Shown: positions 1,216 through 22,424 of the stretch, piece after piece | How positions within the stretch are numbered: position 1 is the first letter of the stretch | Layout: the number at the start of each line of letters is the position of its first letter | DNA from: a virus | Length of the DNA: 64,000 nt | Reading direction: 5' to 3' (one strand) | IMG/VR virus record: IMGVR_UViG_3300045988_131044 | Location: 19,100 to 83,099 of that record | Program-made: the position numbers and the translations under genes | The notes under the pieces: generated by a model | Told to the model about the DNA's origin: nothing | Database searches by the model: none | Seen by the model: only the letters and a program-made list of their open reading frames with translations

Positions 1216-1281
1216 GAAGGTACATTCCGAAACTTATAAAGAAATGTAATAGATTTTATTGAATTTAATATTTTTCATAAC

Positions 1282-3540
1282 ATGGGTGTCAAATGTCAGA
1301 TAGAAAAGAAGGAAAATGAAATAAAACGGGTTAAGGCTCCTAACGGGGAGCCTTCCGTTCTTTACGAAAGTGCTTTAAAAGTATTAGGAAACAGCGAGCG
1401 GGCTCTTCAGGTATGGGCTAAGGCTTACACTCCTGGTTTTTTGTCGTATTACGGTCATTGGAATAACCCGGCTCCAGGGGAGATGTTTAATACCGATTCC
1501 AATGGTGAACCTCTCTTAGAAGACGTGCTGTCGTATATGAAGCGTCAGACTTATTTTGCTGATCCTTTAACGGCTCAGGACGTTAAGGATGTAAGGGATT
1601 TCCTTTTGTCTACTCATTATTTTTTTAATGCGTCTTCATTGTCTAATGCTATTCTTTTCGATTTTTATGTAGATGGCAGTTTGATACTGAATGAGCAGAA
1701 ATTAAGGAGATCCGGTTTGTATGATGAAACAGAGATAAGTCGTATTTTATCCGATCCTTCTGTTTTAAATGAGGTTTCGACTTCCATGAGAAAGTTAATA
1801 GATTGTTCCATTAACGAACATGATAGGGAAAAGGATAATTATTTTATGTCTGTTGGCTATCAGTATGGTCCTATTGTTTACAAGGAGGGAGTGTTTAACC
1901 AATTTGGTAAAAAAGTACCATATAATCCTTCTGAGCTTTATTGGGCTATGTGCAAAACAGTAGGCGGCATAAAAAACTTTTCTGAATTTTCATCTGCTTT
2001 TGAATCGTTGAGGAACCTGTATCCTGAGCTGGTCGAGAAATTTGTTTCTGATAAAAAATTTGCTGAATCTATGTTTGATGAGTTTTCATCTATGAAAAAA
2101 ATGCCGGTAATAAACATAGAAGGCGATGATGTGGTAGAAGGAAAGAAAAGGTCTTTATCTAAGCTACAAGACCTGTCTTATTATAATCCCGGTAAAATAG
2201 AATTTCTAAGAGCTCGTATATCAGCTTATTTAAATAGGGTTAATGCTGACACCGAATCTGATTTAAGAAGCATGATATGGGATATAGAAGAGGCTTGTAT
2301 GTGGTTTGGCATAGATATAATAGGGGCGTCAGAGACTTATGATGGCACAGAAGAATCTTTGGCTAAGATAGATAATTTGATGCTGGATCTTGATATTTAT
2401 GTGGCCAGGCACAATGATGTGAATTATGCTCCTACGCTGGCATCTTCTATCGATGATGTTCTTGGTGATAGTACAGATTATTATTTTAGATCGTTACCAG
2501 AGAATATGGATAATTTGAATATCGTTTATTCTGAATCAAATATAGACCCAGTAGAAGCATTTGAGAAACATTCATTGCTTAAGGTAGGAGATAATCTATA
2601 TCAAAGGATCAGCAAAGATGATCTTAACGAGATGTATCAAATATCAACAGTGTTAGCCAAGCACAACCTAACTCACTTTCCTGCTAAAATATATCCTGAA
2701 TCTTGTTTTAAGAACGGCGTTTTGGATAAAGAGAAAGTACGGAACGTAGATAATAATACGCTCATGGATTCCATTAAAAAATACGTCAGATCGTTCATGG
2801 ATTCTCAGAACACGGAGGACATGATAATGACCAGGATGGCGTTTGGGCACCCGGCGGTACTTGGTGTTTCTTACGCGGATGTGGATCGGGAATTTAGTCG
2901 GTACATGAACAAAAAACAAGATAGCGAAAACCCATTATCCTTATTCGATTTATACCAATCTTACCTTGACAACAAACTCCATAAAACAAAATTATATGAT
3001 AATGCCTATAAGTATCTTGACTTCAAATCTGGTCCATCTTTGGGTCTTATTTCTGATGATCCTGATATTTTGAAATCAATAGAATTATCTTTATCTGGAA
3101 AAGACAGGTTGATGTTGTTTGATTATAGCATGACCAGCACCGACCCTTTTTTATCAAAATTGTTTTATTTGGATAGGTATGACCCTTCGTATGCCGAGAA
3201 TGATTTTGAACACTATTTTTACACCAGGCACCCGTATCTGTTAAAAGAAAAATCGGGCCCTAATATCGTAGAGCAAGATGGTGTTATAACAGCCGAAGGT
3301 ATTTATGATAATTTTATAAGAGTAGGTAATAAGATATGGTCTAAAGTAAGCGAAAGTAGTTCCGGCTCTATCTACCAAAATCTGACAGGAACCGAATCAG
3401 AGGTGAAATACGATTCTACTCAGAAGGCTAAGACGGTAGAAACCGATTACGCTCCATACCAAAACAGATCTGGCTTGACACAAGACATGACCGTAAGCAA
3501 GCCTGAATTGGATGACCTTAACAAATTAGAATGCAAATAA
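1282..3540 (+). CDS. hypothetical 752-aa protein, probable virion/structural (late module)
   Basis: long uninterrupted ORF, ATG start, followed by hairpin+T-run. Confidence 0.5.
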   Translation: MGVKCQIEKKENEIKRVKAPNGEPSVLYESALKVLGNSERALQVWAKAYTPGFLSYYGHWNNPAPGEMFNTDSNGEPLLEDVLSYMKRQTYFADPLTAQDVKDVRDFLLSTHYFFNASSLSNAILFDFYVDGSLILNEQKLRRSGLYDETEISRILSDPSVLNEVSTSMRKLIDCSINEHDREKDNYFMSVGYQYGPIVYKEGVFNQFGKKVPYNPSELYWAMCKTVGGIKNFSEFSSAFESLRNLYPELVEKFVSDKKFAESMFDEFSSMKKMPVINIEGDDVVEGKKRSLSKLQDLSYYNPGKIEFLRARISAYLNRVNADTESDLRSMIWDIEEACMWFGIDIIGASETYDGTEESLAKIDNLMLDLDIYVARHNDVNYAPTLASSIDDVLGDSTDYYFRSLPENMDNLNIVYSESNIDPVEAFEKHSLLKVGDNLYQRISKDDLNEMYQISTVLAKHNLTHFPAKIYPESCFKNGVLDKEKVRNVDNNTLMDSIKKYVRSFMDSQNTEDMIMTRMAFGHPAVLGVSYADVDREFSRYMNKKQDSENPLSLFDLYQSYLDNKLHKTKLYDNAYKYLDFKSGPSLGLISDDPDILKSIELSLSGKDRLMLFDYSMTSTDPFLSKLFYLDRYDPSYAENDFEHYFYTRHPYLLKEKSGPNIVEQDGVITAEGIYDNFIRVGNKIWSKVSESSSGSIYQNLTGTESEVKYDSTQKAKTVETDYAPYQNRSGLTQDMTVSKPELDDLNKLECK

Positions 3541-3585
3541 TTTTTGTACATATATATATAGTTTTTTCATAGTTATAATTTGGGA

Positions 3586-3614
3586 AGTGAGGCTTGTGAA
3601 AGTCTCACTTTTCT
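3586..3614 (+). terminator. Rho-independent terminator candidate (agtgag-12nt-ctcact + TTTT)
   Basis: 6-bp stem then T-run 46 nt after stop of 1282..3540. Confidence 0.45.
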
Positions 3615-4044
3615 TGTATATGCACGTATATCAATAACATACAAGAAAAGTTAGATTTTCGTTGTTTATGAATTATTTTTATTAAGTTTGCAATATTAGT
3701 TTCAGGAAGGGATTATAGAAAATAGGGAAGGTAAGAACAGAACGTAACTAATAACGGTAGGAAATGAGAATCAGTACCATCAAACGTAATAACAGCATTC
3801 ATCTTATGTATAAAAACATTATGAATGATTTAGGTCAATTAAGAACTGTAGTTTCAAAATCCTATATTTATAATCTGATACGAAATCAAACCGGATTAAG
3901 TATCAGAACTATATCCCATGTCTTGAATCACACGAAAGAACAGGATACAGATTCTTTGTGAAAACCATACATTTTCATACATTTGTGTGTTCTTTAGTTT
4001 TTAGATTTAAGTTTTTCATGGTATTAGTTTAGATTAGTGTAGAT

Positions 4045-4080
4045 CAGGGTTCGCAGTGATGCGGGCCCTGGTTTGTTTTA
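4045..4080 (+). terminator. hairpin (10-bp stem with 2 G-U) followed by gtttgtttt; terminator or 3' end of a small RNA
   Basis: cagggttcgc-agtgat-gcgggccctg then T-rich. Confidence 0.4.
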
Positions 4081-4294
4081 CAGTGCTTTACCCAAAATGG
4101 GAAAGGCAAAAGTTTATGATTATCAGGTTTTCCCCTTAAATGGGGGAAAATTAATTATTGTGTATTATACTTCCGTTTTTGCTGAAAATACTTCTCTTCT
4201 ATAGGAAACAAACACACCTGTATTCCACCCTGCAATCATGATCTTTGTTACGTGCTTCATGCACGTATGTTTAACAATTAAATACTATAAAATT

Positions 4295-5302
4295 ATGGGT
4301 GGTGATAAAATCGTCCTTTTAGATGGAGCCGGGGCTAACGGTGGTGGTGCAGCCACTAACGGTCTTCTTTCAATGATTCCCGGCATGTTTGCTAATTTGA
4401 TAGGTGGTAATAAAATGGATCCGAATCTGGTGGCGGCTTTGATGAACGGTCGTAATAACCAGGACGGTTTCGGTGGGGCTAACGGTTGGTGGCTCTGGAT
4501 AATTGTTTTGTTCTGGCTGTGGGGTGGACGCGGCTTCGGTAACGGTTTTGGAAATGGTGGTGATTGTTGCGCCAATGGTTTACCCGCTCAGTTGAATAAC
4601 GATTACGGTCGTGAGCTTCTGATGCAGGCAATTCAAGGTAATCGTAGCGCTATAGATCAGATCGCTTCTGCTTTGAACTGCTCTACTACTCAACTTCAGA
4701 ACGCTATCTGCAACGTACAGGGTGCTATTGATAAAGTAGCTGGTCAGGTAGGTATGACTTCTCAGGCTGTTATCAACGCAGTTCAACAACAAGGTTGTGA
4801 AATCGGAAATCAAATCAGCTCTTGCTGCTGCAATCTGAGTTCGTTGATCAATCAAAGCACTTGCCAGACTCAGGGAATGATTACTCAGCAAGGTTTTGAT
4901 AACCAGCTTCGCACGTTGGAACAAACCAATATCTTGCAGAACGGTCTCAACCAAGGTCTGGCTAACAATCGTGAGCAAGCTACAAGCCAATTCAATATCT
5001 TGTCTGCGAAACTTGACGCTCAAACCGTTATGATCAACGACAAATTCTGTCAGTTGGAAATGAGGGAGATGCAGAACACTATTGCTCAACTTCGTGAAGA
5101 AAAAGCGGCTTTGACAGCTTCGGCATTATCTCAGCAACAAACCCAGAATATCGTTGGTCAATTACGCCCGACGGCCGTCCCAGCCTACCCCTCTTGTTCT
5201 CCTTACCAGGCTTATTCTTGGGGACAGGTATTCGGAGGAGGTTACTGCAATAACGGATGTGGATGTAACAACGGATGTTGCAATAACAACGCTGCTGTCT
5301 GA
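4295..5302 (+). CDS. Gly-rich N-terminus with W-rich hydrophobic segment, Gln-rich coiled-coil middle, Cys/Asn-rich C-terminus; hypothetical structural/membrane-associated protein
   Basis: ORF 4238..5302; start placed at internal ATG 4295 because first 19 codons look non-protein; alternative start 4238. Confidence 0.45.
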   Translation: MGGDKIVLLDGAGANGGGAATNGLLSMIPGMFANLIGGNKMDPNLVAALMNGRNNQDGFGGANGWWLWIIVLFWLWGGRGFGNGFGNGGDCCANGLPAQLNNDYGRELLMQAIQGNRSAIDQIASALNCSTTQLQNAICNVQGAIDKVAGQVGMTSQAVINAVQQQGCEIGNQISSCCCNLSSLINQSTCQTQGMITQQGFDNQLRTLEQTNILQNGLNQGLANNREQATSQFNILSAKLDAQTVMINDKFCQLEMREMQNTIAQLREEKAALTASALSQQQTQNIVGQLRPTAVPAYPSCSPYQAYSWGQVFGGGYCNNGCGCNNGCCNNNAAV

Positions 5303-5325
5303 TTTTATTAAGAGAGGAGGCTAAT

Positions 5326-5739
5326 ATGGCTTGTGTTTCTAAAATAGGATCGTTGTATGAGATGGTTACGAAGAATGTTATTGTCAGTACGACAAATACA
5401 ATCTTCGGTATTAACCCACGGGCTTGGATCGCCCTTCCGTGTGAGGGTCTTATCCTTCTTAAGATAAGGCAAGTAGTCCCCACAGCCGGAAGTGCTCTAC
5501 CGGTACAGATTGCGGTCCCGGCAAACAGCACAGTTTCAACAGTAGGAGCCGACACCTGTTGCTCGGTTACGGGAGTGAATGTCGTGAACCCTATTAACGT
5601 AGCTGTAACGGGTGCTGCTATGGTAAATGGCACAGAACGCCTTCTGTACTTCAATAAAGTTCGTGGCGTGTTAAGATTAATGGATTGCTGTGTTCCAGTA
5701 GCGGCAGCCCAGGCGTCTGAAGTTAAAGCAGGTAAATGA
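5326..5739 (+). CDS. hypothetical protein (137 aa)
   Basis: ATG preceded by GAGGAGG 8 nt upstream; terminator downstream. Confidence 0.6.
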   Translation: MACVSKIGSLYEMVTKNVIVSTTNTIFGINPRAWIALPCEGLILLKIRQVVPTAGSALPVQIAVPANSTVSTVGADTCCSVTGVNVVNPINVAVTGAAMVNGTERLLYFNKVRGVLRLMDCCVPVAAAQASEVKAGK

Positions 5740-5746
5740 TTTCAGT

Positions 5747-5775
5747 AGGGTGATGGAGATCATCACCCTATTTTC
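5747..5775 (+). terminator. Rho-independent terminator (agggtgat-7nt-atcaccct + TTTT)
   Basis: 8-bp perfect stem 8 nt after stop. Confidence 0.55.
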
Positions 5776-5795
5776 ACCTAAATAATATTTTGATC

Positions 5796-6284
5796 ATGTT
5801 TTCAGATTTGAAGAAAGGGTTTCAGGTACATACCCTTGATACTAATACAGTACCTAAATACGAATTGGGAAAGGTAGTAGCCGTATCCGAACCCAGGTAT
5901 CTTCCTCCTCAGCCGGGTCAGTATCAGGCGATGCAGACCCGCGTGGTGGATCTGACGGTAGAGCTCACTGGCGAAACCAAGACCTATACGGTTCCGGAAT
6001 CCCAGAATGTGGCTAAGGCTATGGGTATAACATTATCTACCAGCATAGATCCGATTATGAACGAACTGAATGCTATAAAAAGCACCAGTCAAGACATAAT
6101 AGACAGCGTAGATACCCATCGTGCCAAGATAGAGGCTTGTGAATCTATATTAGAAGACATCAATCCGGCATTCAAACAAACGAGAGAGCAGGATCGTAAA
6201 ATAGCTGGTATAGAAAATAAGGTGAATGACCTTACTGATTCATTCGAAGATTTAAAGAAGTTAATTGTAGAACGTTTGAAATAA
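5796..6284 (+). CDS. hypothetical coiled-coil protein
   Basis: ORF 5790 begins with TTG; first ATG at 5796. Confidence 0.5.
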   Translation: MFSDLKKGFQVHTLDTNTVPKYELGKVVAVSEPRYLPPQPGQYQAMQTRVVDLTVELTGETKTYTVPESQNVAKAMGITLSTSIDPIMNELNAIKSTSQDIIDSVDTHRAKIEACESILEDINPAFKQTREQDRKIAGIENKVNDLTDSFEDLKKLIVERLK

Positions 6285-6291
6285 GTATAAT

Positions 6292-6669
6292 ATGATAGTA
6301 TATGATTTAAATTCAGGGCACAGAGAATATCCTGGATATGACGAGATAGAAGACAGACGAGGTGGAGGCAGAGGCAGAAGCCGGCGTGCTGATGGAACGT
6401 ACATGGAGTACGGACATGGGTTTCTTCCTCCTTATGATCATTACGGTATGCATGAGAAGATGAAGGAAATGGAAGAACGCGAAAACGAGCTGGAAGAAAG
6501 GGAAAGAAGGCTCGAAGAGCGCGAACGTCGTCATGAAATGGAGGACCGGGAATACCGGAGGATGGGTTACGAATCCTACCCGACCGATTACTATGGAGAC
6601 GACAGATACTACGGTGACGGACCTCAGATGCGTAGAGGTCGCGGACGTGGCAGAGGTCGTTCTTATTGA
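6292..6669 (+). CDS. Arg/Gly-rich (RGG-box-like) highly charged small protein, possible nucleic-acid-binding virion protein
   Basis: RRGGGRGRSRR at N-terminus, RRGRGRGRGRSY at C-terminus, central EERERRLEERERR repeats. Confidence 0.55.
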   Translation: MIVYDLNSGHREYPGYDEIEDRRGGGRGRSRRADGTYMEYGHGFLPPYDHYGMHEKMKEMEERENELEERERRLEERERRHEMEDREYRRMGYESYPTDYYGDDRYYGDGPQMRRGRGRGRGRSY

Positions 6670-6762
6670 GGAGCAGACGCAGAGGATCCAGCTTATCAGA
6701 AATATGTAGATACTTACGGCTACCATTTTTCTAATGCTCTTGCTGATGAGGCGGTAAAGAAG

Positions 6763-7056
6763 ATGGTCAACGTCGATGGATCCAAGAGGATCTGGAAGCA
6801 GCCGGAAATAAAAGATATTTTTGAAAAGTGCGGAGCGAAGAAGCCGGATAAAGCGACATGGGGCGATGTCCAATATGTCTTTGCAATGTACTATTCGGAT
6901 GGTTTTCCGAAGGTCTTCAAATGTGAGAACGAGTTGGTGAAAGCTACGTTAATGTATTTGGATGATCCGGATGCTCCCGAAGGAGTAGCCTTTATAAGAT
7001 GGCTTGCCGTGCAAGATTACCTCGGCGAAAAAATAAACTGGAAGGATCTGACCTGA
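6763..7056 (+). CDS. hypothetical protein (97 aa); same frame as 6292..6669, separated by one TGA
   Basis: ATG ORF; protein-like upstream in-frame sequence back to TGA at 6667. Confidence 0.45.
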   Translation: MVNVDGSKRIWKQPEIKDIFEKCGAKKPDKATWGDVQYVFAMYYSDGFPKVFKCENELVKATLMYLDDPDAPEGVAFIRWLAVQDYLGEKINWKDLT

Positions 7057-7223
7057 GATCCAGGCCCAGGCCCTTCCGGTGGTGCGGGAGCCATAGTGAA
7101 AAATATGATTCCCGCATTCCCGTTTTTCCCGTTTGGAAAAAAAGGAATAAAAAAATGTTATACCGGTCGGCGGGCAATAGAATACCCGTGGCCGGTTTGT
7201 TTCACATAACTTTTTTTTTTGAT

Positions 7224-7400
7224 ATGAATATGGCACACGAATCTAAATCAAATAAAACACCCTTGTATTTAATAGGAGAGTTGATTGGCGTACCGAATAC
7301 GGTTATGGACTCAGCATTGCATGAACTGAGAGATAGAATAGACAAAGACCCTAAATATAAAGATGTTAAAAATTGGCTCGAGTCTTTACCCAAGATCTGA
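7224..7400 (+). CDS. hypothetical small protein (58 aa)
   Basis: ATG after T-run; 5' part of ORF 6999..7400 is GC-rich terminator-like sequence, not coding. Confidence 0.3.
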   Translation: MNMAHESKSNKTPLYLIGELIGVPNTVMDSALHELRDRIDKDPKYKDVKNWLESLPKI

Positions 7401-7422
7401 ACCTATTTTTTTCAATACCAGG

Positions 7423-7453
7423 CCCGATGCGATTTTAACGTATCGGGTTTTTA
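7423..7453 (+). terminator. Rho-independent terminator (cccgat-13nt-atcggg + TTTTT)
   Basis: hairpin + T-run 22 nt after stop. Confidence 0.6.
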
Positions 7454-7502
7454 TTTTAATTCATATTGTTTTATTTTAAATCTAATTAATTCATGAATGT
7501 CG

Positions 7503-7510
7503 TACATTTG
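7503..7510 (+). promoter_or_regulatory. Bacteroidota-type -7 promoter element TACATTTG
   Basis: TAnnTTTG 17 nt upstream of ATG 7528, just after terminator. Confidence 0.35.
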
Positions 7511-7527
7511 TTGAAAAATTATTTTTT

Positions 7528-7755
7528 ATGGAAAATAAGGAAGATTACGTTGGTTACGAAGATCAAGAACTGTGTAACCGGTATTACAAAGAGGCTGAAG
7601 CCATGAGACAAAAGCAGGACTGGTCTCGGCTTAGGGCTGTCCCTGCTCCGGCCAAGGGAACGCCATCGCCCGGCTGGGGACAGCTTGGACGTGGAAATGA
7701 TGTCCGTGTTAAGTACGTTAGCATCAATTCAGGATTAGGAGGGGACCGATTATGA
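7528..7755 (+). CDS. hypothetical small protein
   Basis: first of four ORFs with overlapping stop/start codons. Confidence 0.45.
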   Translation: MENKEDYVGYEDQELCNRYYKEAEAMRQKQDWSRLRAVPAPAKGTPSPGWGQLGRGNDVRVKYVSINSGLGGDRL

Positions 7756-7970
7756 CTGTAGAAGAATTGGCTAATAAAAGATACGGTGGCGAATTTGTTT
7801 TCATGTTTGGTCATCTTGAAGGTATAACAAGATTCGTTTTTGAATGCTTTGATCCCAGACCCGATCACGAAGGTAAAAATACCTATATGGTTTCTTATTT
7901 TGAGAAGGAACTTCGTAGAAGAGATGTGGTAGATGTACCGTATTATATAAATGTTTCAGCGAAAACATGA
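7752..7970 (+). CDS. hypothetical small protein
   Basis: ATGA overlap with neighbours. Confidence 0.45.
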   Translation: MTVEELANKRYGGEFVFMFGHLEGITRFVFECFDPRPDHEGKNTYMVSYFEKELRRRDVVDVPYYINVSAKT

Positions 7971-8170
7971 AAACACTACTTTTAAACGTACCTTCTTTCT
8001 CTGGTAAGATAGTTTCTCCTACCTGGATTAAAGTCGTAAGGGATTTCCAATCTAAATCGAAGGCAGAAAGAGACTCGTATTGTTCGGTTTGTGGATGTAC
8101 GGGAGGGGGTAACTTATGCGATGATGTAAGTAAATATAGGATTTCAGAACAACTAAAATATTACAAATAA
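7967..8170 (+). CDS. hypothetical small Cys-containing protein
   Basis: ATGA overlap with neighbours. Confidence 0.4.
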   Translation: MKTLLLNVPSFSGKIVSPTWIKVVRDFQSKSKAERDSYCSVCGCTGGGNLCDDVSKYRISEQLKYYK

Positions 8171-8439
8171 TGGAATTAAAAGATTTAGTCAGGATAATGA
8201 CAAAAGAAGAGTTCGAATCAGCAATCAACGAAGATATTAAATTCGTTGAAAGATTTAAGCATTTTTTTAAACATGATGATGTTGCGAGGATAATAGAACA
8301 CGTAAAGTCAGTGTTAGAAGCATCAGTGGACTACTGCTATCCGAATCATCCTGAACCTAAAGCAGAACCTGGAGACATGGGAGAGGTTTCTGATGGATAC
8401 CATACTTTCAATATCCGAAATAACATTAAAACAATATAA
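8170..8439 (+). CDS. hypothetical small protein
   Basis: overlapping start; stop TAA immediately precedes the omegaRNA-like block. Confidence 0.45.
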   Translation: MELKDLVRIMTKEEFESAINEDIKFVERFKHFFKHDDVARIIEHVKSVLEASVDYCYPNHPEPKAEPGDMGEVSDGYHTFNIRNNIKTI

Positions 8440-8690
8440 TTCCATTATAAGGTTTTAATGTACCAGAAATGGTCCGGATATTAGCCTAAGCCTTGAAACG
8501 AAGGCTACGTTATTTGAGAATAGATAGTTACCTACGGATGTTTGTCCAAGTCCGTAGCTCTAAGGCAAGCGATTAAACAGAGATTGTATTCGGGTTTCAG
8601 TGTTGCTTGCGAAAAACCTCTTATAACATTGGCGATGGGTACTAACAGGATGAAATATTCCTGACTTATGTTGAATAAACATTAAAAACG
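8425..8690 (+). ncRNA. IscB-associated structured RNA (omegaRNA scaffold / left end of IS200/605-like element)
   Basis: non-coding block directly 5' of iscB with several hairpins; homologous inverted copy at 30640..30960 with compensatory changes. Confidence 0.6.
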
Positions 8691-8699
8691 TTTGTAGAT

Positions 8700-9920
8700 A
8701 TGGTGTATGTACAAGACATAGATGGTAAACCTCTGATGCCAACAACAAGACATGGAAAGGTTAGGAGACTGCTCAAATCAAACAAAGCAGTCGTTGTAAA
8801 CCTATGTCCGTTTACCATCCGATTGACGTACATATCCGATAGTTACAAACAAGAAATTGTATTAGGCGTTGATGCTGGAACCAAACATGTTGGTCTATCA
8901 GCAACGACGAAAAGCAAAGAACTTTACAGCAGTGAAGTAATTCTTAGAAATGATATCGTAGATCTTTTGTCTACCAGAAGAGAGCTACGGAAAGCAAGAC
9001 GGAACAGGTTAAGATATAGAAAACCTCGTTTTGATAACAGAGTAAAAAGCAAGCGTCCAGGATGGATAGCACCTTCGGTGAAATACAAAGTAGACGCCCA
9101 TATTTGCGTTATTAACAATGTTTGCTCTATACTACCAATATCTCGTATTGTTATTGAAGTAGCTCAATTCGATACTCAAAAGATTAAGAATCCTGAGATA
9201 TCAGGTAAAGAATACCAGGAAGGTGATCAACTTGAGTTTTGGAACACAAGGGAGTATGTTTTAGCAAGAGATGGTCATAAATGCCAGTATTGTAAAGGCA
9301 AGTCAAAAGATTCTATACTGAATGTTCATCATATTGAGTCTCGAAAAACCGGAGGGGATTCCCCTTCTAATCTTATAACTTTATGTGAAACATGTCACAA
9401 AGAATACCATAAAGGTAATATAGATTTAAAGATCAGAAGAGGCAAGTCGCTTCGCGACGCAGCCGTAATGGGAATTATGAAATGGAGGTTGTATGAAGAG
9501 TTAAAATCCAGATACGACAGAGTTTTTATGACGTTTGGTTACATTACGAAACATAATCGGATTAAATATGGGATTGAAAAATCCCATACATCCGACGCGT
9601 TTGTCATTTCTAAGAATATTAATGCGAAACGAATCGAACGTCAATATTTAAAACGTTTAATTCGTAGACATAATAGACAAATACATAAAATGAAAATTTT
9701 AAAAGGGGGGAAGAAGAAAAACAATCAAGCTCCTTTTGAGGTTTTCGGTTTTAGGTTGTTTGATAGAGTGTTGTATAACAATAAAATATTCTTTGTTTAT
9801 GGAAGGAGAAAATCAGGGAGTTTCAATATCAGGGATTTCAACGGAGAAAATTCAAAAGATGTTTCACGCAAAAAGTTTAAACTCATTAGAGGGAAGAGGC
9901 ATCCGATTATATTAAAGTAA
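8700..9920 (+). CDS. iscB: IscB RNA-guided HNH/RuvC endonuclease (RRXRR/HNH family)
   Basis: N-terminal PLMP motif, RuvC-I LGVDAGTKHVGLS, Arg-rich bridge RRELRKARRNRLRYRKPRF, RuvC-II IEVAQFD, HNH CQYC...NVHHI...LCETCHKEYH, RuvC-III HTSDAF. Confidence 0.85.
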   Translation: MVYVQDIDGKPLMPTTRHGKVRRLLKSNKAVVVNLCPFTIRLTYISDSYKQEIVLGVDAGTKHVGLSATTKSKELYSSEVILRNDIVDLLSTRRELRKARRNRLRYRKPRFDNRVKSKRPGWIAPSVKYKVDAHICVINNVCSILPISRIVIEVAQFDTQKIKNPEISGKEYQEGDQLEFWNTREYVLARDGHKCQYCKGKSKDSILNVHHIESRKTGGDSPSNLITLCETCHKEYHKGNIDLKIRRGKSLRDAAVMGIMKWRLYEELKSRYDRVFMTFGYITKHNRIKYGIEKSHTSDAFVISKNINAKRIERQYLKRLIRRHNRQIHKMKILKGGKKKNNQAPFEVFGFRLFDRVLYNNKIFFVYGRRKSGSFNIRDFNGENSKDVSRKKFKLIRGKRHPIILK

Positions 9921-9957
9921 ATGAACGGATTTAATAAATTTAATAGAAAAACGTATC

Positions 9958-10263
9958 ATGTATAATAAAGAAATAGTAATATGCGCGGCCATCTGGGTGC
10001 AGGACGGCAAGAAGCGTCCTCATCAGCCCACCAATATACCATCCGGCGCCGTGTTCTGTGGATTGAGACATTGTTCTATCATTTCTCAGTTTGCAGCTTA
10101 TGGTATTGCTCATAAGAACCGTAGTATTCAAGGATTTTTGACAAGCAAGAACCGGTTTCTAACAAGAGAGGAAGCGTCTGAACTTGTTAGAAACAATAAT
10201 CAGGAGATGGTGGTAGATAGGAATGCCATTAGAGAACAATTGTATTCAGAAGATTTATATTAA
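9958..10263 (+). CDS. hypothetical protein (101 aa) between iscB and tnpB; not a TnpA (no HuH motif)
   Basis: ATG ORF. Confidence 0.4.
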   Translation: MYNKEIVICAAIWVQDGKKRPHQPTNIPSGAVFCGLRHCSIISQFAAYGIAHKNRSIQGFLTSKNRFLTREEASELVRNNNQEMVVDRNAIREQLYSEDLY

Positions 10264-10345
10264 CTAAAAACAAAATAATATGGGATTTATAATTATTTAA
10301 CCAACAAAACCACCATACCTTAGCAAGTGGATGAATTGGGTTGAT

Positions 10346-10353
10346 TAATTTTG
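10346..10353 (+). promoter_or_regulatory. Bacteroidota-type -7 element TAATTTTG upstream of tnpB
   Basis: TAnnTTTG 24 nt before ATG 10377. Confidence 0.35.
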
Positions 10354-10376
10354 AATCAAAATTACAGATAAAAAAA

Positions 10377-11516
10377 ATGATTTCATACAAATACAACATC
10401 TATCATTCGAAGAAAACGAAGTATCTTGACAAGATGCTTCGTGAATGTTGTTTTGTATGGAATCATGCGTTAGCTCTACAACGTAGGTATCACAAACTGT
10501 TTGGAAAATATATTTCAGTCGGTAAGATGAAGAAACATTTTGCCAAGAGGATTAGGAGAAACTTGCTTCATTCTCAAACAACACAAGAGATACTTGAACG
10601 TCTTGATGAATCTTATAATCGTTTCTTTAAGAAGTTGGCTAAACGACCTCCTAAGTTCAAAAGAGCTTCTTGTTTTAACTCTTTTGTTTTCAAACAAGGA
10701 GGGTTTACCCTAAATGGTAATTGTCTAACAATTAACAAAGGAAAGAAACGATTTAAGTTTTCATACAGTAGATCTTATGAAGGTAATGTTAAACAAATTA
10801 GAATAGTTAGAGAAACCTGTTCCCGTTTTAGTTTGATTATAGTTACAGACTATAATCCTTCAAACTCTTATAGAAAGACACATGATGGTGCATCTATCGG
10901 ATTGGATTTTGGGCTGAAAACTTATCTGACTAAAAGCGATGGTAGCAAAATCGATTCTCCATTATTCTTCAAACAATATCAAAACAAGATTAGAAAACTA
11001 AGTAAGAAATTTTCTAATGCAAAGAAAGGATCTAATAATAGGAGAAGGAGACTGTTTGAACTCCAACAAACGTATCGTAAAATAAACAATCTTCGATCAG
11101 ATTTTCAATGGGGATTAGCACACCAGTTATGCAAACAGTATGATTATATTTTTATTGAAGATCTAAACATTGAAGGAATGAAACGTTTGTGGGGAAAGAA
11201 AGTTTCCGATCTTAGTCACTCTTCTTTTATTGACAAACTTACGTATGTTGCTTTAAAATATGGAGTGATAGTACACAAGATTGACAAATGGTATCCTTCT
11301 TCCAAAACTTGCGAATGTGGCTGCATTAATAAAGGTCTGTCGTTACGCGACCGCACGTGGGTGTGCCCGTCGTGCGGTGCAGTTAACGACCGTGATGTTC
11401 TTGCAGCCCGTAATATACTTCGGAAGGGCATTTCCGAATTGGAGAGTATGGGTAATTCCAGCGGTAGAAATACCGGGGTTTCATGCGTTTGTATCCAAGA
11501 ATCCCATTCGCTTTAG
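10377..11516 (+). CDS. tnpB: TnpB RNA-guided endonuclease (IS605 OrfB family, canonical with zinc finger)
   Basis: RuvC-I IGLDFGLKT, RuvC-II IFIEDLNI, ZnF CECGC...CPSCG, RuvC-III DRDVLAARNI; ORF 10341 begins with TTG, first ATG 10377. Confidence 0.85.
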   Translation: MISYKYNIYHSKKTKYLDKMLRECCFVWNHALALQRRYHKLFGKYISVGKMKKHFAKRIRRNLLHSQTTQEILERLDESYNRFFKKLAKRPPKFKRASCFNSFVFKQGGFTLNGNCLTINKGKKRFKFSYSRSYEGNVKQIRIVRETCSRFSLIIVTDYNPSNSYRKTHDGASIGLDFGLKTYLTKSDGSKIDSPLFFKQYQNKIRKLSKKFSNAKKGSNNRRRRLFELQQTYRKINNLRSDFQWGLAHQLCKQYDYIFIEDLNIEGMKRLWGKKVSDLSHSSFIDKLTYVALKYGVIVHKIDKWYPSSKTCECGCINKGLSLRDRTWVCPSCGAVNDRDVLAARNILRKGISELESMGNSSGRNTGVSCVCIQESHSL

Positions 11517-11540
11517 CGATGGGAGTATGTCAAACTGGTA
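11380..11540 (+). ncRNA. candidate TnpB omegaRNA (reRNA) scaffold overlapping 3' end of tnpB
   Basis: hairpin tcccat(t)cgc-ttta-gcgatggga straddles the tag stop (11496..11521), as in characterised TnpB systems; inferred, not verified. Confidence 0.3.
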
Positions 11541-11667
11541 ATTGCATAATTTAATTGAACGCAAATCCAAAGGACCCAAGTGAATCTTTTTTTGACGTAT
11601 ATGATAGAGATGAGATGAAATTAATATATGGAATAAAAATTAGTATCTTGAAAGAAATGTTTATCAT

Positions 11668-11988
11668 ATGATTACCAAGCAGGACATACAAACAGCAGTA
11701 TCGTATATTTTCCAAAGCAGTTTTGTCTCGGAAGACCAGGCAAGGAAAGTAATGGTAAGAGCCGGTAATAACGCTACCAAGAACCTTGTCAAGACCTTCA
11801 GAGGAAAGTTGTTCAAGAAGGCTTTTGGAAGAGCTCGTAGAGGAAAGGATATCAGTTCTTTTGAAAGACAAGAAAAAGAAAGTGGTTTTAATTTTCTTTA
11901 TAATCCTAATAATGGTCGTATGCGAAGCGGTCATATTATAATAGACGGAATTGGTCTGTTTAAACAAATAATAGAGTCGGGTACGTAA
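11668..11988 (+). CDS. hypothetical basic protein (106 aa)
   Basis: ATG ORF. Confidence 0.45.
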   Translation: MITKQDIQTAVSYIFQSSFVSEDQARKVMVRAGNNATKNLVKTFRGKLFKKAFGRARRGKDISSFERQEKESGFNFLYNPNNGRMRSGHIIIDGIGLFKQIIESGT

Positions 11989-12017
11989 GTTATCCGACTT
12001 TTTTATATATTTGTGGC

Positions 12018-12341
12018 ATGGCAAGAGGTTATTATTGGATACCACAAACAGATGAAACGTTAAATGGCAGAAGCTATTACGTAACTAAGGTAGTAGGAGA
12101 TATAGTGTTTGATACTAAACGAAAAAGAATAGTGTTTCAAACTACCAGGTATTTCCCAGTAGGCTCCGTATTCCATTTTACTCACAACTGTTTTAAATAC
12201 GTCATAACCTGCCGACTTCGTAAGCCTGGGCTGTGGTATGAGGCAAGGAGGGAAGACTGCGGACCTATTGGACCGGATGATGTGGAAAGGTTCGAATCAG
12301 GAAGGTTTATTCATAGAAATGGGTACAAATACAATGCATAA
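12018..12341 (+). CDS. hypothetical protein (107 aa)
   Basis: ATG ORF, terminators downstream. Confidence 0.45.
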   Translation: MARGYYWIPQTDETLNGRSYYVTKVVGDIVFDTKRKRIVFQTTRYFPVGSVFHFTHNCFKYVITCRLRKPGLWYEARREDCGPIGPDDVERFESGRFIHRNGYKYNA

Positions 12342-12390
12342 GCGTAACTTGACGATTTGCGTCAGATTATAATTTTTTTTCATATTATTT

Positions 12391-12431
12391 TTAAGCCATC
12401 AGACTGAGAAGTTAGATGGCTTAATTTTTTA
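12391..12431 (+). terminator. Rho-independent terminator (ttaagccatc-14nt-gatggcttaa + TTTTTT)
   Basis: 10-bp perfect stem + T-run. Confidence 0.65.
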
Positions 12432-12451
12432 TGATATGCTTGATTTTTAGC

Positions 12452-12459
12452 TACCTTTG
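12452..12459 (+). promoter_or_regulatory. Bacteroidota-type -7 element TACCTTTG for the giant gene
   Basis: TAnnTTTG 23 nt before ATG 12483. Confidence 0.4.
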
Positions 12460-12482
12460 TCTCATAACAAAAATGTTTTATC

Positions 12483-15400
12483 ATGGTATCAACGTGTATT
12501 ATTAAAAGAGATAATAAAAAGAAAGTTGTTTCTGTCTCTACCAGATCAGGGGACAGGTCTATGTTATTCGATAAGATAGCATCTATTCCTCTTATGGAAA
12601 ATAGGGAACGGGCTACTACTGTTTTTAAAACCGTATTTTCTAATAAGTTCTTAAAGGCTTTTGGTGACTGGAGAAGGAATGTGCCTATCAACAAACAGGC
12701 TTACAATAAGGTAAAATTCAATATCGACCTTATTCCAGAGACCTATAGAGAAAGGGTGCTGGATAAGGCTTCTAAGATGAGCAACCCTATTCTTGTGTCG
12801 AAATCAGATGCGCCTTATGGGATTCAAGAATCAGGCTTTGGATTCTACAGCCAAGATCTAGGTGATAATATTATGTTGGTGGATGCTATGGTTCCGTCAG
12901 GTATTTCCGTACCGGAAGGACCGGGAATAGACGCCGGCCAGTATCTGCAAGATGCTATATCTTCAGACTTCACTCCCGTATCTATGGTACAGGATAAGGG
13001 TGTTGATTATATGGTCATAAAAGACGGTCTTAAGATATTTAGCCCAGAAGAGCTACCAGAGGCAGATTCTAATCCTGTGGGTGTAACGTATCAGACTGGA
13101 GAGCCTCGTTTGTTTTTCATGAACGATCGTAATCAATTATTTGAAGATTACGGAGAAGCTCTTCGCTCTGGCGGGAATGATATTAGAATAGGATTCTTAT
13201 CCGGCACCGTTCAAGAATCTGCCTGGGATGGCGTGGCAGACATTACTTACAAAGCTGGAAAGTATGTTCTTAATAATCCCAAATCTTTTATACCGGTCAT
13301 GACCGCTTCCGCTTCTACTTCTTTATCAACAAAAGGCGGTATAATAAACTACCTTATAAAGAAAGGTCTTTTGTCAGGATCCAAGATATTCGATCCGGAA
13401 ACAAGAAGCTATTATCTTACAGGAGAAGGACATGCAGGACAAATTAGACTTTTCAATTCAGCCTTAGCTTATACCGATCTCCGTAATCATTTTGGTTCTG
13501 ATGTTTCCATGAACGACCAGGGTATGATAACCATAAATTCATTGGATAATAGTAAGGTAACTATGAGACTCGCCACCGGAGGAACGGAAAGGGTTAGCAG
13601 GGGGCAGATAAAGAACGATCTCAAGTCAGGAAGATACAATGAATTGGACGCCAAGTACGATCATTTTGATGCGCTTGTAGTTTCATTCATATTAGAAGAC
13701 AACGATCTTTATGCTGATACTAAAGCTAAGATCGTATCGGATTATAGCCAAGAGGAACGTAATCAACGAAATTCTATTGTTGAGATACTGAAAACGCTGG
13801 GCGTTAGTGTCGTTGGCATGACCGATTATATAGAGAAGTACCAAACTAAATACGGACACGAACCTTCTGCTAAGGCATTGGCGGATATTGCCAATAACGT
13901 AATAGCAGTCGGTGAAGATGCTACTTTGTCTGACTTAGTAGAAGAAACAGCCCACTTTCTTGTAGAGGCGTACAGAGATCAGAATGCTGTTGAGGCTGTT
14001 CTGCAAAATGTAGAAGGCACTGAAGAATGGAATCAGTATGCAGGTCAGTATTATAATACATACGGTAAGGTATATGAAGGAGCTGAGCTTGATAATGCTG
14101 TTAGGAGAGAAATTCTTGGAAAGATCCTCGCCAGGGAGATACAGACCGGCACAGCACAGGCGCCGGTAGAGCCCACCTCCTTCCTGGGGCGCGTCCGGCA
14201 GCTTCTCTCTGGAATTGTAAACTGGCTTAAATCAGCTTTATCAACCCAAAGACAGGATTTGAATAACGTTATTAAAAATATTCGTGATCTTGCTATTACC
14301 GACATAGATAAAGGATTTGATACTTCTCTTTTGAAGGATAATGACTTTACATTATACTCCCTTTCTTCTATGAACAAGAACAAGTTTCTTGAGTCTAAGA
14401 TCCGGGCATTGAGAAAAACGTTAAGAGACTTACGTCAGATAAGCTCTGATAGGGCTGTAACTACGTCTATGACCCTTGCCCAGCTTAAGACCATAGAAGA
14501 TAAGATAAATAAGGTAGAGACCGAAATAGACAAGAATGAGATGGCGGCCGCCATGAACAGCATGATCTCCACAGCCGAAGCTCAGGTTAGATACTTAAGC
14601 AACGTAGTAAATACTATCCTTCATGGTGATACCAAAGACGGTAAGCTTCATTTCAATACCAATGATCGAAAGAACGTAGATATTATCAACAATCAGGTTC
14701 TTCCGATCATGAACGATCTTCGAGGATATATCCGTAACAGAAGTACCGAATTTGATGAGCGTGAAAAGCAGGATTATACAAATAGGATCAATACCGTCAT
14801 TGCCGACATCAACGGTATTCAGTCTGATATTAAATCAGTACAAGATCTTGATGAAAGTACGTTGCTTGACAAGTTAATGAACGAACTTCATGTGCCGGCA
14901 GATAAGGTAAAGAGAGTAAAAGAGTTCTTTGATAAGGTTCAACATGATGTGTCCTGGATAAGTAGGTGGTTTGGTATATTAGAACATTCCTCCAGCCCAT
15001 TTAATAACGCTCTTGGAGCTATGATTGCCAAAGACAATTACAATGCGATGGTGAATGCCCAGCCCGCTATATCCGATTTTCTGGCATATGCGAAAAAGCA
15101 TGGTTTTAACAAATCTGAATTTGAAAAACTGCTTCAGAAAGTAGACGGCAAAACTTCTAATTACCTTCGTAGTGCCCTTGATATGGCTAAATACGATCGT
15201 AATAAGAAGCTGGCGCAGATGCGAGCGTTTGCGACCGCCATGAACATAGAGATATCAGAAGAAGAAATCAATGATGTGGTTGACAATAACCGTAATTACG
15301 TATTTAAAAGAGAAGTAGTTGACAAGGACGGAAATACGGTTACTGAGAACGCTAAATTTAAACCGTCGTCCGATAGGGTTAATACCGATATTTTTACCAT

Positions 15401-18400
15401 CGAGCAGGAAAAGATTTATACAGAACAGATGGAGAAGTGGGATGCTGAAAATTCAGAACTGGAATTTAGTGAAAGTTATGCCACAAGAATGGAATCCATA
15501 TACAAAAAGGCCGAAGAAGAATTAGGGCATCCGGTTTCTCAAACAACCAAAGAATACCTTAACGCTCTTTCTCGGCAGAAGCGGATATTGAGGCAGCCTT
15601 TTATTGATAGCAATGGTAATTTTGATGAGGTTGCTTACTATAAGAGTAGTAACTACGAAGAAGAAGGACTGCTTCGTAAACAACGTAAGGAAGCAGCTTC
15701 AGAATACATATATGTAGGAACCAGGAGAGTGGAAAAAACCGGCGACCAACTTAAGATGGCCAAAGAAATACAAGCTATAAATGAAGTTTGGAGAAAGGAA
15801 TCAAATAATGTCACTAATGTCGTATCAGAATCGTTTTTGCAAAAATTGAGAACGATTCAGAACGAGTCAGGAGGAGAAGCTGCGCTGAAGACACTTATGT
15901 TGGGAGGTCACCTGTCATTTAATGATCGGTTTTGGAATGATGTAGAATCGGAACAGTCGGCGCGCACCGAATCAAACAACAAGGCTTCGTATCTTAAAAT
16001 GGCGCATGATATCATTAGCTCTACGACAAGTGATAGAGATGCGACTGACGTGGATTCGATTGTGAAAGATATAGAAAAAAATAAGGCCATTATCAAGGAA
16101 ATAATCGGAAACAACCGAGATGTGGCTGATATCGGAGAAATTAACGAAGCGACATTTACCTCATCTGAAAGAGATGCTTTTAGGGCCGCATCTGAAGCTA
16201 TTGAAGCCGATTACGCTATTTTGATAGATTATGCTAAGATGGTGGGTCTTGAAGATATTGATAAGTACCTTACTAAAAGCAGTAAGGCTGAAAACGAAGT
16301 AAATCAGTCTTATTTAAATGCTCTTGCTGACTCCAAGGAAGTGGAATGGAAGTTTGTGCAACGTCATACTACGGCAAAGAAAGCAAAAAGGATTCAGGCT
16401 TTAAGGGATAAGCTGTTTAAAGCTGCTGATAACCGATATCTGTTTACCGTATCTGAAACCAACTACCTGTCAGAAAAGCTTGGAATAAGCAAAGAATTAG
16501 ACGGTAGAGATTTTAGGAATGCTGTCAATGCTAAGATGGCCAGCTTATTTTTAAATAACACAAGAGAATCAGGTATAGAAGAAGCTAATGCGATCGTTAA
16601 TGAATTTGCCAGGAGCCAGGTCTTTTCGTACTATAAACGCATGGCACCTACCGGATATGCGGCTATGATTGGTAAAATAGGCCGCGGTGAGATAGATGTG
16701 GCGCAGATGGTTAAAGACGTACAGAACAGTACATCCACCCAAGATTATGGCATGGACATATCATACCTGTCTTTCGACCCTGCAAGGGCATGGGTGGCTG
16801 AATCTGAAGCCGAAAATAGCGGTCGTAACCCTGATTATGTAAAAGATCATGGGTATGGTCATCGTATGCCCAAGAAAAGCCTGTATCGTGATGAATCGTA
16901 TTTCAATGACTTTGGTATCAAGTATGATGCTGACGGTAATGAGGTTGCTACTAAAAACGTAGAGCAATGGAATATGATTCAAAAACTTAAGGAAATAAAA
17001 AGACAATCCCTTTCCTTATACAAAGAGCAGAGCCCGAACCTGTATGCTATTCCACAGATATCCAAACAAGATATAGAACGTGTAGAAGGATTGGGTATTA
17101 ACTTCAAAAATACGGTTCGTAATTTTGTATCAGATCTCTGCCTGGATAGAGTAGACGATTCTCTATACGGTAAAACCAGACAAGGGGAAGTATATGATCC
17201 GGAAGATAGGCTTAGGTCTATACCTAAATACTACATATATGAATTGGAGAACCAAGATGATGTATCTCACGATTTTGGTTACTCTTATTCGATGCTTATG
17301 ATGCAATCATCGTTATACAACGAAAAGCAGAAGTCTATAGAGCTCGCTCAAGGACTGGAGCAGATGTTACTGAATAAGCAATTTGAAGGCGGGAAGAAAG
17401 CTGAAGCAACCCAAGCATATCAGATGTTCAGGGACTTCTTCAATGACCATTATTATGGCATTAGGATGAACACCAAAAAACTTACGGTGAACATCGGAGG
17501 ATATACGGTAGACCTTACCAGGATAATGATGGCCGTTGAAAGGTTTATGTCGGTTATGAACCTGGCGCTGTCCCCGTTTGTGGCAGCTACCGGCGCCTTA
17601 ACAGGTCATATCAACCTCATCATGGAATCTGCCGTAGGACAGTATATAAGCAAAGACTCCCTTAAATACGCATCGGCTGAGTTTTCACGTCTTGCGCCAT
17701 CTTGTATAGCAGAAACCGGAGACATAGATAGAAAAAGCAAATTATATGTCATAGGTGAGAGAATGGGGATATTCAATATCCGAAATCGTATGTATGGTGC
17801 CGGATACAATAGAGTAGCCAGGACCTTAATGCGTTCACCTATGTATGCTTTTATGGAAATCCTGAACTACCCTCTTGATCCGCAGGTTATGATTGCTGCT
17901 ATGGACAATGTTCGTTATTACAAAGGCCGGTTCTATACGTTCCAAGATTTCAAGATGGAAAAAGAACGCAATAAAGAACAGAGTACCATAAAAAGAGAAT
18001 GGAATGCATTAAAAGATCGTACTTTATGGAGTATGGTAGACGTCGTGGATGGGAAGGTGGTTGTAAAGCCCGGATCAGGTGTTACTGTTGAGGAAGTTGA
18101 AACCCAGATGGCTATAACCAGAAATCAAGTCCGTAGCTTGTCGCAGATATGTAACGGATCTTTGAATGAAGAAAACCGAACTGCCGCATCGCGCAACTGG
18201 ATAGCCAGGTTCATGACCGCCCACCGAGGATGGTTGGTGCTGGCGGCTCAACGCCTGTGGAAAAGACGTGGCTTCAATTTCCAAACAATGCAAGAAGAGG
18301 AAGGGTTGTCAATTACGTTAAAGAATATGATAGCCAAAACATTTAGCCTGGCTTCCGAGTCTGGTATGAAAAACATCATAGATGCCTGGAACGAAAATAA

Positions 18401-18905: not shown

Positions 18906-19041
18906 ACGAAGAATATCGAGCTTACATTACTTTGATGTGAGCCAGATATGTTATCTTAGCATTGTCAAAGAGTAGACTATACGTTTTTTGTTCTTACTTT
19001 AAGGTTATGTAGGTTAAATTTTTTCTGAAATTGTTTTCTTA

Positions 19042-19081
19042 CCGGTTCTCAGTCAGAGATGATAGGGAACCGGTTTTTTTT
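19042..19081 (+). terminator. Rho-independent terminator (ccggttc-18nt-gaaccgg + T8)
   Basis: 7-bp stem + 8 T just after giant gene. Confidence 0.7.
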
Positions 19082-19735
19082 ATGTTGTCAATTATTGCTA
19101 TCTTGCAAACAAAAATCATGAGACGAAGATTTCAAATAGGGATGGGGGTAAATCCCTCGCTTATAATCAATAAAGGCATATACATCCAACATGTAGATGG
19201 AGGATTATATACAAAAGAAAATTGGTCTAATAAAGGATATTCCAATGATCTATGCAATGGAATAGCTCTTGTAGATAAAGTGTGTTTTGTTATAGCCACC
19301 GAATATATTGGCACATCTCGTTGGGGTAAGGATGGACAAATAGACAATATATTTGCACAAGATAGTTCTCATATTGGAACTATTAAAAAGGATTATTGGG
19401 GGCGTGAAAATCAGAATGCGTATCTTGAATATGATACCAGTAATACAGATTACGCTTTTAATAAAGCTAATAGCTATTTATTTAAGAATGGTCAAAATGG
19501 ATATGTAGGTGGCGCCGGAGAGTTTTTTTTGATATCATTGTATGCTAATGAAATAAACGAATGCCTTTTAATGGTAGGAGGTACGATAATGAGTAATAGA
19601 ATGTGGACATCCACTCGAAATGAAAAATCTACCTATTCGTGGTATTATGATATAAACATCCAAGGAGATCATTTGGATACAGGTTCAAGGGGTAGTTCAC
19701 GTTATGTCCGTCCTTTTACTGAATTAATTTTATGA
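19082..19735 (+). CDS. DUF1566 (Lcl C-terminal)-like domain protein, possible fibre/receptor-binding protein
   Basis: C-terminal MWTSTRNEKSTYSWYYDI...SRYVRPF resembles DUF1566; start uncertain (19082, 19118 or 19142). Confidence 0.45.
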   Translation: MLSIIAILQTKIMRRRFQIGMGVNPSLIINKGIYIQHVDGGLYTKENWSNKGYSNDLCNGIALVDKVCFVIATEYIGTSRWGKDGQIDNIFAQDSSHIGTIKKDYWGRENQNAYLEYDTSNTDYAFNKANSYLFKNGQNGYVGGAGEFFLISLYANEINECLLMVGGTIMSNRMWTSTRNEKSTYSWYYDINIQGDHLDTGSRGSSRYVRPFTELIL

Positions 19736-19739
19736 AATT

Positions 19740-20466: not shown

Positions 20467-20509
20467 AAAAAAAATAATTATGGCACCAAGAACTATTGGT
20501 GCCATAATT
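20465..20509 (-). terminator. strong Rho-independent terminator for leftward early transcripts at the convergent junction (13-bp stem aattatggcacca/tggtgccataatt + U9 on minus RNA)
   Basis: perfect inverted repeat flanked by A9 on plus strand. Confidence 0.7.
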
Positions 20510-21240: not shown

Positions 21241-21241
21241 C

Positions 21242-21475: not shown

Positions 21476-21482
21476 ATTATTT

Positions 21483-22408: not shown

Positions 22409-22424
22409 TAGATTCAACCTTATA

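Follow-up and report, generated by a model that had tools for sequence, protein, structure and literature searches.

A probable non-autonomous IS200/IS605-family element with IscB and its omegaRNA in an Epsilon crAss-like phage

HEARO is now known as the omegaRNA family of IscB, encoded upstream of iscB and bounded by the right end (RE) of the transposon (Meers et al., 10.1101/2023.03.14.532601). For GstIscB, encoded by an IS605-like element of Geobacillus stearothermophilus, and its TnpA the target-adjacent motif (TAM) TTCAT, located 5' of the left end (LE), was determined experimentally; in the same study IscB elements were found to be oriented as the upstream gene, approximately 1.5% of iscB genes were found near tnpA with approximately 98% of the loci being non-autonomous, and the Rfam family RF02033 was remarked to be without the downstream structure (Meers et al., 10.1101/2023.03.14.532601). 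For OgeuIscB (structures 7utn and 7xht) the TAM is given as NWRRNA (PMC12660989). More than 16% of the contigs encoding IscB/HEARO were reported to be viral or prophage-derived (Goltsman et al., 2022, PMC9755519), and TnpB "transposases" were described in Epsilon crAss-like phages in a study in which IscB or HNH proteins are not mentioned (Babkin et al., 2024, PMC11054128). A review on obligate mobile element-guided activity (OMEGA) systems considers RNA-guided homing in co-infecting phages or plasmids as only theoretically possible (PMC13565253). Here, we describe a locus in a 64,000-nt stretch of the IMG/VR record IMGVR_UViG_3300045988_131044, referred to as the window, in which positions 8411..9957 most likely constitute a non-autonomous IS200/IS605-family element of an Epsilon crAss-like phage. 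It encodes an IscB with intact catalytic residues and an omegaRNA and would be maintained and spread by RNA-guided cutting, a reading to which we assign a probability of roughly 0.85.

Judged by profiles and structures, the open reading frame (ORF) in this element is a bona fide IscB. Its product scores 358.1 bits with the equivalog model guided_IscB (NCBIfam NF040563; cut-off 175, E 3.6e-107), matches the full Pfam model RRXRR (1-174/174) at 3.7e-60 and Pfam HNH at residues 195-238 at 4.8e-11, and among solved structures it is closest to IscB chains such as OgeuIscB (~1e-42, residues 2-333). The PLMP motif is located at residues 11-14, the Arg-rich stretch RRELRKARRNRLRYRKPR of the bridge helix at about residues 93-110, the split RuvC residues D58, E153, H296 and D299 align to solved IscB, and the HNH insert contains H210/H211, N224 and H233/H237 and a zinc site of C195/C198/C229/C232. 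The hallmarks listed in the original prediction, which was made from the letters of the DNA (PLMP, split RuvC, Arg-rich bridge helix and HNH in a 406-aa ORF), were all recovered by Pfam, structures and sequence, and the assignment to IscB also held in the profile comparison. The domain order is that of OgeuIscB, compared to which the phage protein is approximately 90 aa shorter (406 vs 496 aa). The catalytic numbering is nearly equal to that of GstIscB, with D58, H210 and H211 here corresponding to D58A/H209A/H210A in the dIscB variant. A scan of IMG/VR returned 351 viral stretches with relatives of this IscB, from which the best 79 loci, 79-98% identical to the IscB of the window and mostly from contigs of 85-160 kb, were kept for comparison. 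In these homologues from viral contigs, none of the 13 catalytic and zinc-binding residues varies (79/79). Most of the homologues are full length with 406-408 aa, and residues 334-406 are conserved among the relatives, while the alignment to PDB entries stops near residue 333. Membership in a type II CRISPR-Cas9 system was rejected, as Tandem Repeats Finder revealed nothing array-like near the locus and the 406-aa protein passes the IscB model and not a Cas9 model.

The hairpin-rich block 5' of iscB is its cognate HEARO/omegaRNA. The Rfam model (RF02033) is matched at full length (model 1-211) at 8436..8646 (+) with 105.2 bits, compared to a gathering score of 83 (E=1e-21), the match ending 54 nt upstream of the iscB ATG, and compensatory changes were found at 14/61 consensus pairs in an alignment of 22 non-identical copies. 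The omegaRNA-like region proposed earlier is thereby borne out by covariance model and covariation alike, although not its start: it had been set at 8425, and comparison of the flanks shows that the conserved RNA begins at 8411. The 5' domain folds with -21.1 kcal/mol (z -4.7) and has the HEARO 5' architecture, and two other element types in sibling phages have other sequences with the identical fold of this domain. Compared to OgeuIscB, the omegaRNA of which also belongs to the HEARO family, the 5' domain is AT-rich and poorly aligned by the Rfam model. The placement of the 5' stem at 8436 by Rfam was ruled out by the flank comparison and by the fold, in which the outer stem is formed by 8411-8417 and 8475-8481; in a second element of the window, the mini-element described below, the Rfam match begins exactly at the first base of the element. 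A fixed guide inside the element, suggested by the conserved stretch 8411..8435 located 5' of the Rfam start, was dropped once the stem was correctly placed. An alignment across element types with MAFFT/RNAalifold gave no consensus for the 5' domain, the types differing by indels, and the types were folded singly instead. At the other side, the extra hairpin beyond the Rfam model agrees with the remark by Meers et al. on the downstream structure absent from RF02033. The almost invariant leader between this hairpin and the start codon could be the 5' untranslated region of iscB, a promoter or the 3' tail of the omegaRNA.

The putative guide is located directly 5' of the scaffold, its length of 16 nt being adopted from published IscB systems. 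Approximately 45 different 16-nt flanks precede the conserved scaffold start among the copies of the element, a variability expected of a guide that is taken from the flank. The left end, ATATCCGAAATAAC..., is preceded by many unrelated sequences and starts exactly at 8411 in comparison to at least 10 unrelated flanks, the final 29 nt of the ORF upstream lying within the element. The other end at 9957 is located 37 nt beyond the iscB stop codon, and different genes follow after ...GAAAAACGTATC. This corresponds to the canonical arrangement, in which iscB reads from RE to LE with the guide outside RE and the TAM outside LE. Like the element of GstIscB, the one described here is non-autonomous and has an RE-bounded omegaRNA upstream of iscB with a flank-derived 5' guide, and the IscB-omegaRNA locus is co-oriented with the genes upstream of it on the same strand. 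The coordinates are summarized in Table 1.

Table 1. Features of the IscB element, its surroundings and the related elements in the window.
Feature	Coordinates	Strand	Remarks
Mobile unit	8411..9957	+	Conserved block between unrelated flanks (blastn and flank listings)
Predicted 16-nt guide GGATACCATACTTTCA	8395..8410	+	Flank DNA outside the element, within the truncated DUF2829-like ORF
omegaRNA scaffold	8411..8663	+	5' three-way domain, HEARO core, extra 3' hairpin
5' three-way domain of the omegaRNA	8411..8481	+	Outer stem ATATCCG (8411-8417)/CGGATAT (8475-8481) enclosing two hairpins
Extra 3' hairpin	8646..8663	+	Conserved, beyond the Rfam model; HEARO core ends at 8646
Leader between omegaRNA and iscB start	8664..8699	+	Alignment columns almost invariant in 22 copies
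iscB, 406 aa	8700..9920	+	PLMP, RuvC-I, bridge helix, RuvC-II, HNH, RuvC-III, C-terminal putative TAM-interacting domain
iscB-distal element end (LE side in TnpA orientation)	9921..9957	+	Conserved to ...GAAAAACGTATC, then divergence between insertion sites
ATG abutting the element	9958..9960	+	Putative TAM/TnpA target motif; CAT on the other strand
Element ends (RE and LE)			...CGGATAT (RE); CAT followed by GATACGTTTTTC (LE)
Truncated DUF2829-like ORF	8170..8439	+	89 aa vs 251 aa intact in crAssE-Sib
Downstream ORF, 101 aa	9958..10263		Start codon is the ATG abutting the element
omegaRNA mini-element, 364 nt	30604..30967	-	No iscB; GC-rich hairpin; same type of ends as the IscB element
Predicted guide of the mini-element CATTATGATCGGTGTT	30968..30983	-	Flank directly 5' of the scaffold
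TnpB element	10291..11533	+	ORF 10341..11516; NF040570, 238.7 bits
TnpB-family ORF	34..1215	+	NF040570, 158.4 bits
TnpB-family ORF	22425..23615	-	NF040570, 157.7 bits

The insertions follow a simple rule. ATG is found directly after every right end that could be placed by alignment, and for the guides of 14 insertions an identical or nearly identical 16-mer was located at the unoccupied site in siblings, in each case with ATG directly after it. By chance, ATG is expected at any one position with a frequency of ~0.02. The ATG is often the start codon of the next gene, and in a noisier census 21/30 distinct ATG flanks open at least 50 codons. This census of right ends by fuzzy patterns was rejected as a basis for the ATG statistic, as the AT-rich end patterns gave many spurious matches, and it was kept for the ORF-opening tally only. 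We infer from the alignments that ATG is the TAM of IscB, compared to NWRRNA for OgeuIscB. In GstIscB the TAM of the nuclease is the target motif of TnpA, and its reverse complement ATGAA contains this ATG; in contrast to GstIscB, only ATG is conserved at the insertion sites here, often as a start codon, and the replicon is a crAss-like phage of lytic type and not a bacterial chromosome.

Genomes without the element at the same position support this rule. Phage crAssE-Sib (OR575929), which is collinear with the window at 1267..13000 and in which IscB is absent, contains at the corresponding site GGATACCATACTTTCA directly followed by ATGAATTG in an intact DUF2829 gene of 251 aa, i.e., an exact target of the guide with ATG next to it. 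Several siblings in IMG/VR have the same intact target site, with IscB located ~500 bp further right. At the occupied site ATA follows the guide-matching flank, one base off ATG, which may spare the element's own locus. The mini-element has a clean empty site in crAssE-Sib as well, again without target duplication. As judged by these occupied/empty pairs, the ends are precise and no target-site duplication is formed.

Neither the window nor the related loci (2.0 Mb) gave a match to Y1 (HUH) TnpA with an IS608 TnpA probe or a motif scan, and we therefore classify the element as a non-autonomous member of the IS200/IS605 family. The probe was validated on phage records, in which it was 100% identical to copies in Helicobacter phages and revealed homologues in 121 records from phages of very diverse hosts. 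In contrast to the situation for GstIscB, a cognate TnpA is thus found neither in the window nor in the related loci. The RE side is strongly structured as single-stranded DNA (z -7.1), and the pattern of insertion beside ATG without duplication fits a Y1 TnpA acting in trans.

The most likely mechanism is the following. The omegaRNA would be transcribed with a 5' guide originating from the flank at 8395..8410, its scaffold starting with the first base of the element. The IscB-omegaRNA complex would then cut copies of the phage genome in which the 16-nt flank is followed by ATG, i.e., element-free alleles or excision scars, while the occupied site with its ATA would be spared. Homologous repair from an element-bearing genome, abundant during replication or co-infection, would restore the element or copy it, the outcome being homing or "cut-and-copy" maintenance. 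New insertions would be formed directly 5' of ATG, or 3' of CAT if the other strand is read, with no duplication of the target and a Y1 TnpA being supplied in trans. Similar to the Seg/Mob homing endonucleases of phage T4, a cut of the element-free sibling genome is predicted, after which element and flanks would be copied in co-infection; unlike in Seg/Mob, the specificity would originate from a flank-derived RNA guide and a short TAM, and not from protein-DNA recognition.

Several observations weigh against this model. IscB is present at the site in 33/35 contigs having the same downstream gene, an occupancy which shows vertical fixation more than ongoing homing. ATG is a rule for insertion sites and may perhaps be only partly what IscB reads. 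The LE side (9900..9960) has no hairpin above shuffled sequences (z 0.10), while one is expected for a canonical TnpA substrate. Apart from the cognate TnpA not being found in the loci searched, hardly any member of the IscB clade is present among the 185k bacterial species genomes, and the model is at its weakest in the transposition step. In the data with one genome per bacterial or archaeal species, a match of 69% was found in a metagenome-assembled genome of Phocaeicola and one of 85% in "Vibrio olivae", all others being at or below 59%. The latter is located on a 20-kb contig of "Vibrio olivae" CECT 8064 (NZ_JBHMEP010000019.1; locus L116), which contains the 85%-identical IscB element and segments matching 25896..26489 of the window; the contig has the appearance of DNA from a crAss-like phage that ended up in a Vibrio assembly, possibly by contamination. 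Concerning the occupancy of the site, the contigs L093 and L081 are the only 2/35 with the ATGTATAATAAAG gene and no IscB upstream of it. The ATG of the ATGTATAATAAAG gene is directly joined in L093 to a 5' part of the DUF2829-like gene; this junction may have arisen by loss or deletion.

Of the alternatives, the one surviving best, improbable as it is, regards IscB-omegaRNA as a domesticated weapon that the phage keeps mainly against competing sibling phages or host DNA, the element no longer being mobile. The guide of the window matches genomes of the crAssE-Sib type exactly with ATG next to the match, and the reverse is found as well. Guides of siblings match the window perfectly (16/16), followed by ATG, at 7787..7802 (+, ATG at 7803; guide of the type found in L017 and L009) and at 29244..29259 (-; guide of L021), where the ATG is the start of ORF 29070..29243, and sites with one mismatch to sibling guides are located at 7736..7751 (+) and 41888..41903 (-). 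Due to the perfect matches with ATG, the phage of the window is a predicted target of the IscB of its relatives. The nearly phage-restricted clade, the near-fixation of IscB at the site in the lineage and the TnpA not found in the window or the 2.0 Mb of loci would also be in line with a weapon. However, the guides are whatever flanks the element, in ~45 variants, the targets are the empty sites of the element itself and neither host sequences nor conserved essential phage sequences, and the precise insertions at many sites together with a proliferating mini-element point to ongoing mobility. As exclusion and homing can coexist, the two explanations partly differ in emphasis. That the phage carries a programmable nuclease, as claimed in the original prediction, is supported insofar as an intact IscB with its omegaRNA is encoded; it is not a tool owned by the phage, because the guide is set by the element's own flank, and the most plausible view of the nuclease is that a selfish insertion of the IS200/IS605 type carries it as cargo.

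Even less probable is a decaying relic, i.e., an immobile remnant with inactive nuclease or RNA that is passively carried by the phage. Such decay would account for the variants in which the omegaRNA (L015) or its 5' domain (L013) was lost, for TnpA not being detected in the loci searched and for the distal end without a detected hairpin. It is difficult to reconcile with catalytic and zinc ligands that are invariant throughout homologues of 79-98% identity, mostly of full length, with omegaRNA stems maintained through compensatory changes and with the many distinct insertion sites that are occupied. A free-standing, protein-guided HNH homing endonuclease with the upstream structure as mere regulatory leader, as the name "HNH endonuclease" of phrog_119 and phrog_2214 and the annotation of GenBank phage homologues as HNH endonuclease or hypothetical protein might suggest, is hardly credible given the full IscB architecture including the split RuvC, the full-length HEARO upstream and the fact that this RNA moves with the gene and also alone under the same end rules.

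Returning to the mobile IscB element, its copies differ in a characteristic manner at the guide side. Many copies have a common right flank and differing left flanks, and wherever the ancestral sequence is available, the missing guide-side segment begins with ATG. Compared to L002 and crAssE-Sib, the window has lost the segment from an internal ATG of the DUF2829 gene to the guide end of the element; in L017 and L009 the segment missing in comparison to the window begins at ATG 7803, and a 12-nt guide-side deletion at the mini-element also begins with ATG. Such deletions could arise if the element hopped locally to a TAM close by and the two copies then recombined. They could also arise if one end of the element were joined to such a TAM within the same molecule, in a reaction of the TnpA type. 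Further variants were observed among the relatives. In L015 iscB is kept and the omegaRNA is absent, with a join equivalent to window 7737 to 8657; in L013 the omegaRNA has a 5' domain from which the first hairpins were lost. In L009 and L019 the 5' domain of one element type is joined to the body of another, and these mosaics suggest recombination between element variants.

The window contains a second full-length HEARO (model 1-211) at 30723..30967 (-) with 95.2 bits compared to the gathering score of 83. No IscB ORF was found after this HEARO in the mini-element 30604..30967, which abuts the start codon ATG at 30603..30601. In crAssE-Sib the empty site reads CATTATGATCAGTGTT directly followed by ATGGAATTG, and in the window the flank is followed by the element and then by ATGGAATTG; the 16-mer of the predicted guide is found in crAssE-Sib with one mismatch and ATG next to it. 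In IMG/VR, 79 stretches contain the deletion junction of the mini-element, the number of different sites being 10 or more; where the right end could be placed, ATG follows the flank pair with a single exception. The mini-element is plausibly mobilised like a miniature inverted-repeat transposable element (MITE), and its RNA may be loaded in trans by the IscB encoded at 8700, making it a candidate second guide.

In total, the window encodes one IscB, three TnpB genes and one orphan omegaRNA, while crAssE-Sib, which belongs to the phage group described in PMC11054128, has two TnpB genes and no IscB. The TnpB element downstream of iscB, at 10291..11533, is an independent one and sits between TTTAT, the likely TAM, and the flank ACTGGTAATTGCATAA, the likely guide. 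Neither L001-L003 nor crAssE-Sib contain it, and in L004, L054 and L063 it is found at other sites. At its TAM side, ~190 nt are missing in the window from a small ORF, the gap lying between two TTTAT motifs; this is the mirror image of the guide-side deletions of the IscB element.

CrAss-like phages are among the most abundant human gut viruses, and their microdiversity is concentrated in accessory regions such as the one described here. The window is assigned to an Epsilon crAss-like phage by its similarity to crAssE-Sib, with 93.5% identity of region 12400..32400 across 83% of its length, and virion structural protein, helicases and exonucleases are among its PHROG matches. The locus is part of a variable stretch with small accessory ORFs, flanked by two giant virion/"structural protein" genes. 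The location inside a late/structural module that had been proposed therefore holds only approximately: giant virion-protein genes stand at either side, but the locus itself lies among small accessory ORFs and not in a classical structural cassette. The DUF2829-like ORF in front of the element obtains its last 9 codons and its stop codon from the first 29 nt of the element. A tandem array was found in the window at 62514..62769, where long ORFs are absent; a 51-nt unit is repeated there ~5 times (89% matches, score 310), in a head-to-tail arrangement that is not CRISPR-like.

Concerning relatives in described phages, megablast of the locus against GenBank phages returned the TnpB part only, while tblastn revealed IscB homologues of up to 52% identity in unannotated contigs of gut phages and in phages of Clostridium, Clostridioides, Ralstonia, Staphylococcus and cyanobacteria. 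Under the name "HNH endonuclease", IscB homologues have gone unrecognised in large PHROG families and in phage genomes already deposited. Among the papers searched, none was found to describe IscB in crAss-like phages. Phage-borne IscB as such is already known since 2022, and conceptually the locus adds nothing beyond the established OMEGA/IS605 model. What may be new is the ATG/start-codon rule, the orphan omegaRNA family, the TAM-bounded retargeting of guides and the cross-targeting between siblings. Compared to the survey of Goltsman et al. (PMC9755519), one Epsilon crAss-like lineage is resolved here with ends, guides, ATG rule, empty sites and an orphan omegaRNA, and the value lies in a well-resolved natural example of an OMEGA/IS605 element within a phage population. 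The compact IscB of 406 aa with a putative 3-nt TAM (ATG), hundreds of natural variants and guide/target pairs may also interest groups working on genome editing.

A broader interpretation, which we consider possible but rather doubtful, is that Epsilon crAss-like phages host a largely phage-restricted OMEGA network that acts as a gene drive, guided by RNA, from phage to phage in co-infection. Several guides would share a single IscB, among them those of MITE-like elements that consist of omegaRNA only and have spread to 10 or more sites, the ATG start codon would serve as TAM and insertion motif, and guides would be retargeted by deletions. If true, insertions would slip between the genes of a compact genome, and deletions from the guide end to the next upstream ATG would prune accessory genes such as DUF2829 and at the same time aim the IscB of each phage at the intact genomes of its siblings. 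Elements with IscB, TnpB or an orphan omegaRNA would drive gene-cassette turnover, local deletions and competitive exclusion among co-infecting phages, provided that they cut the genomes of siblings next to start codons.

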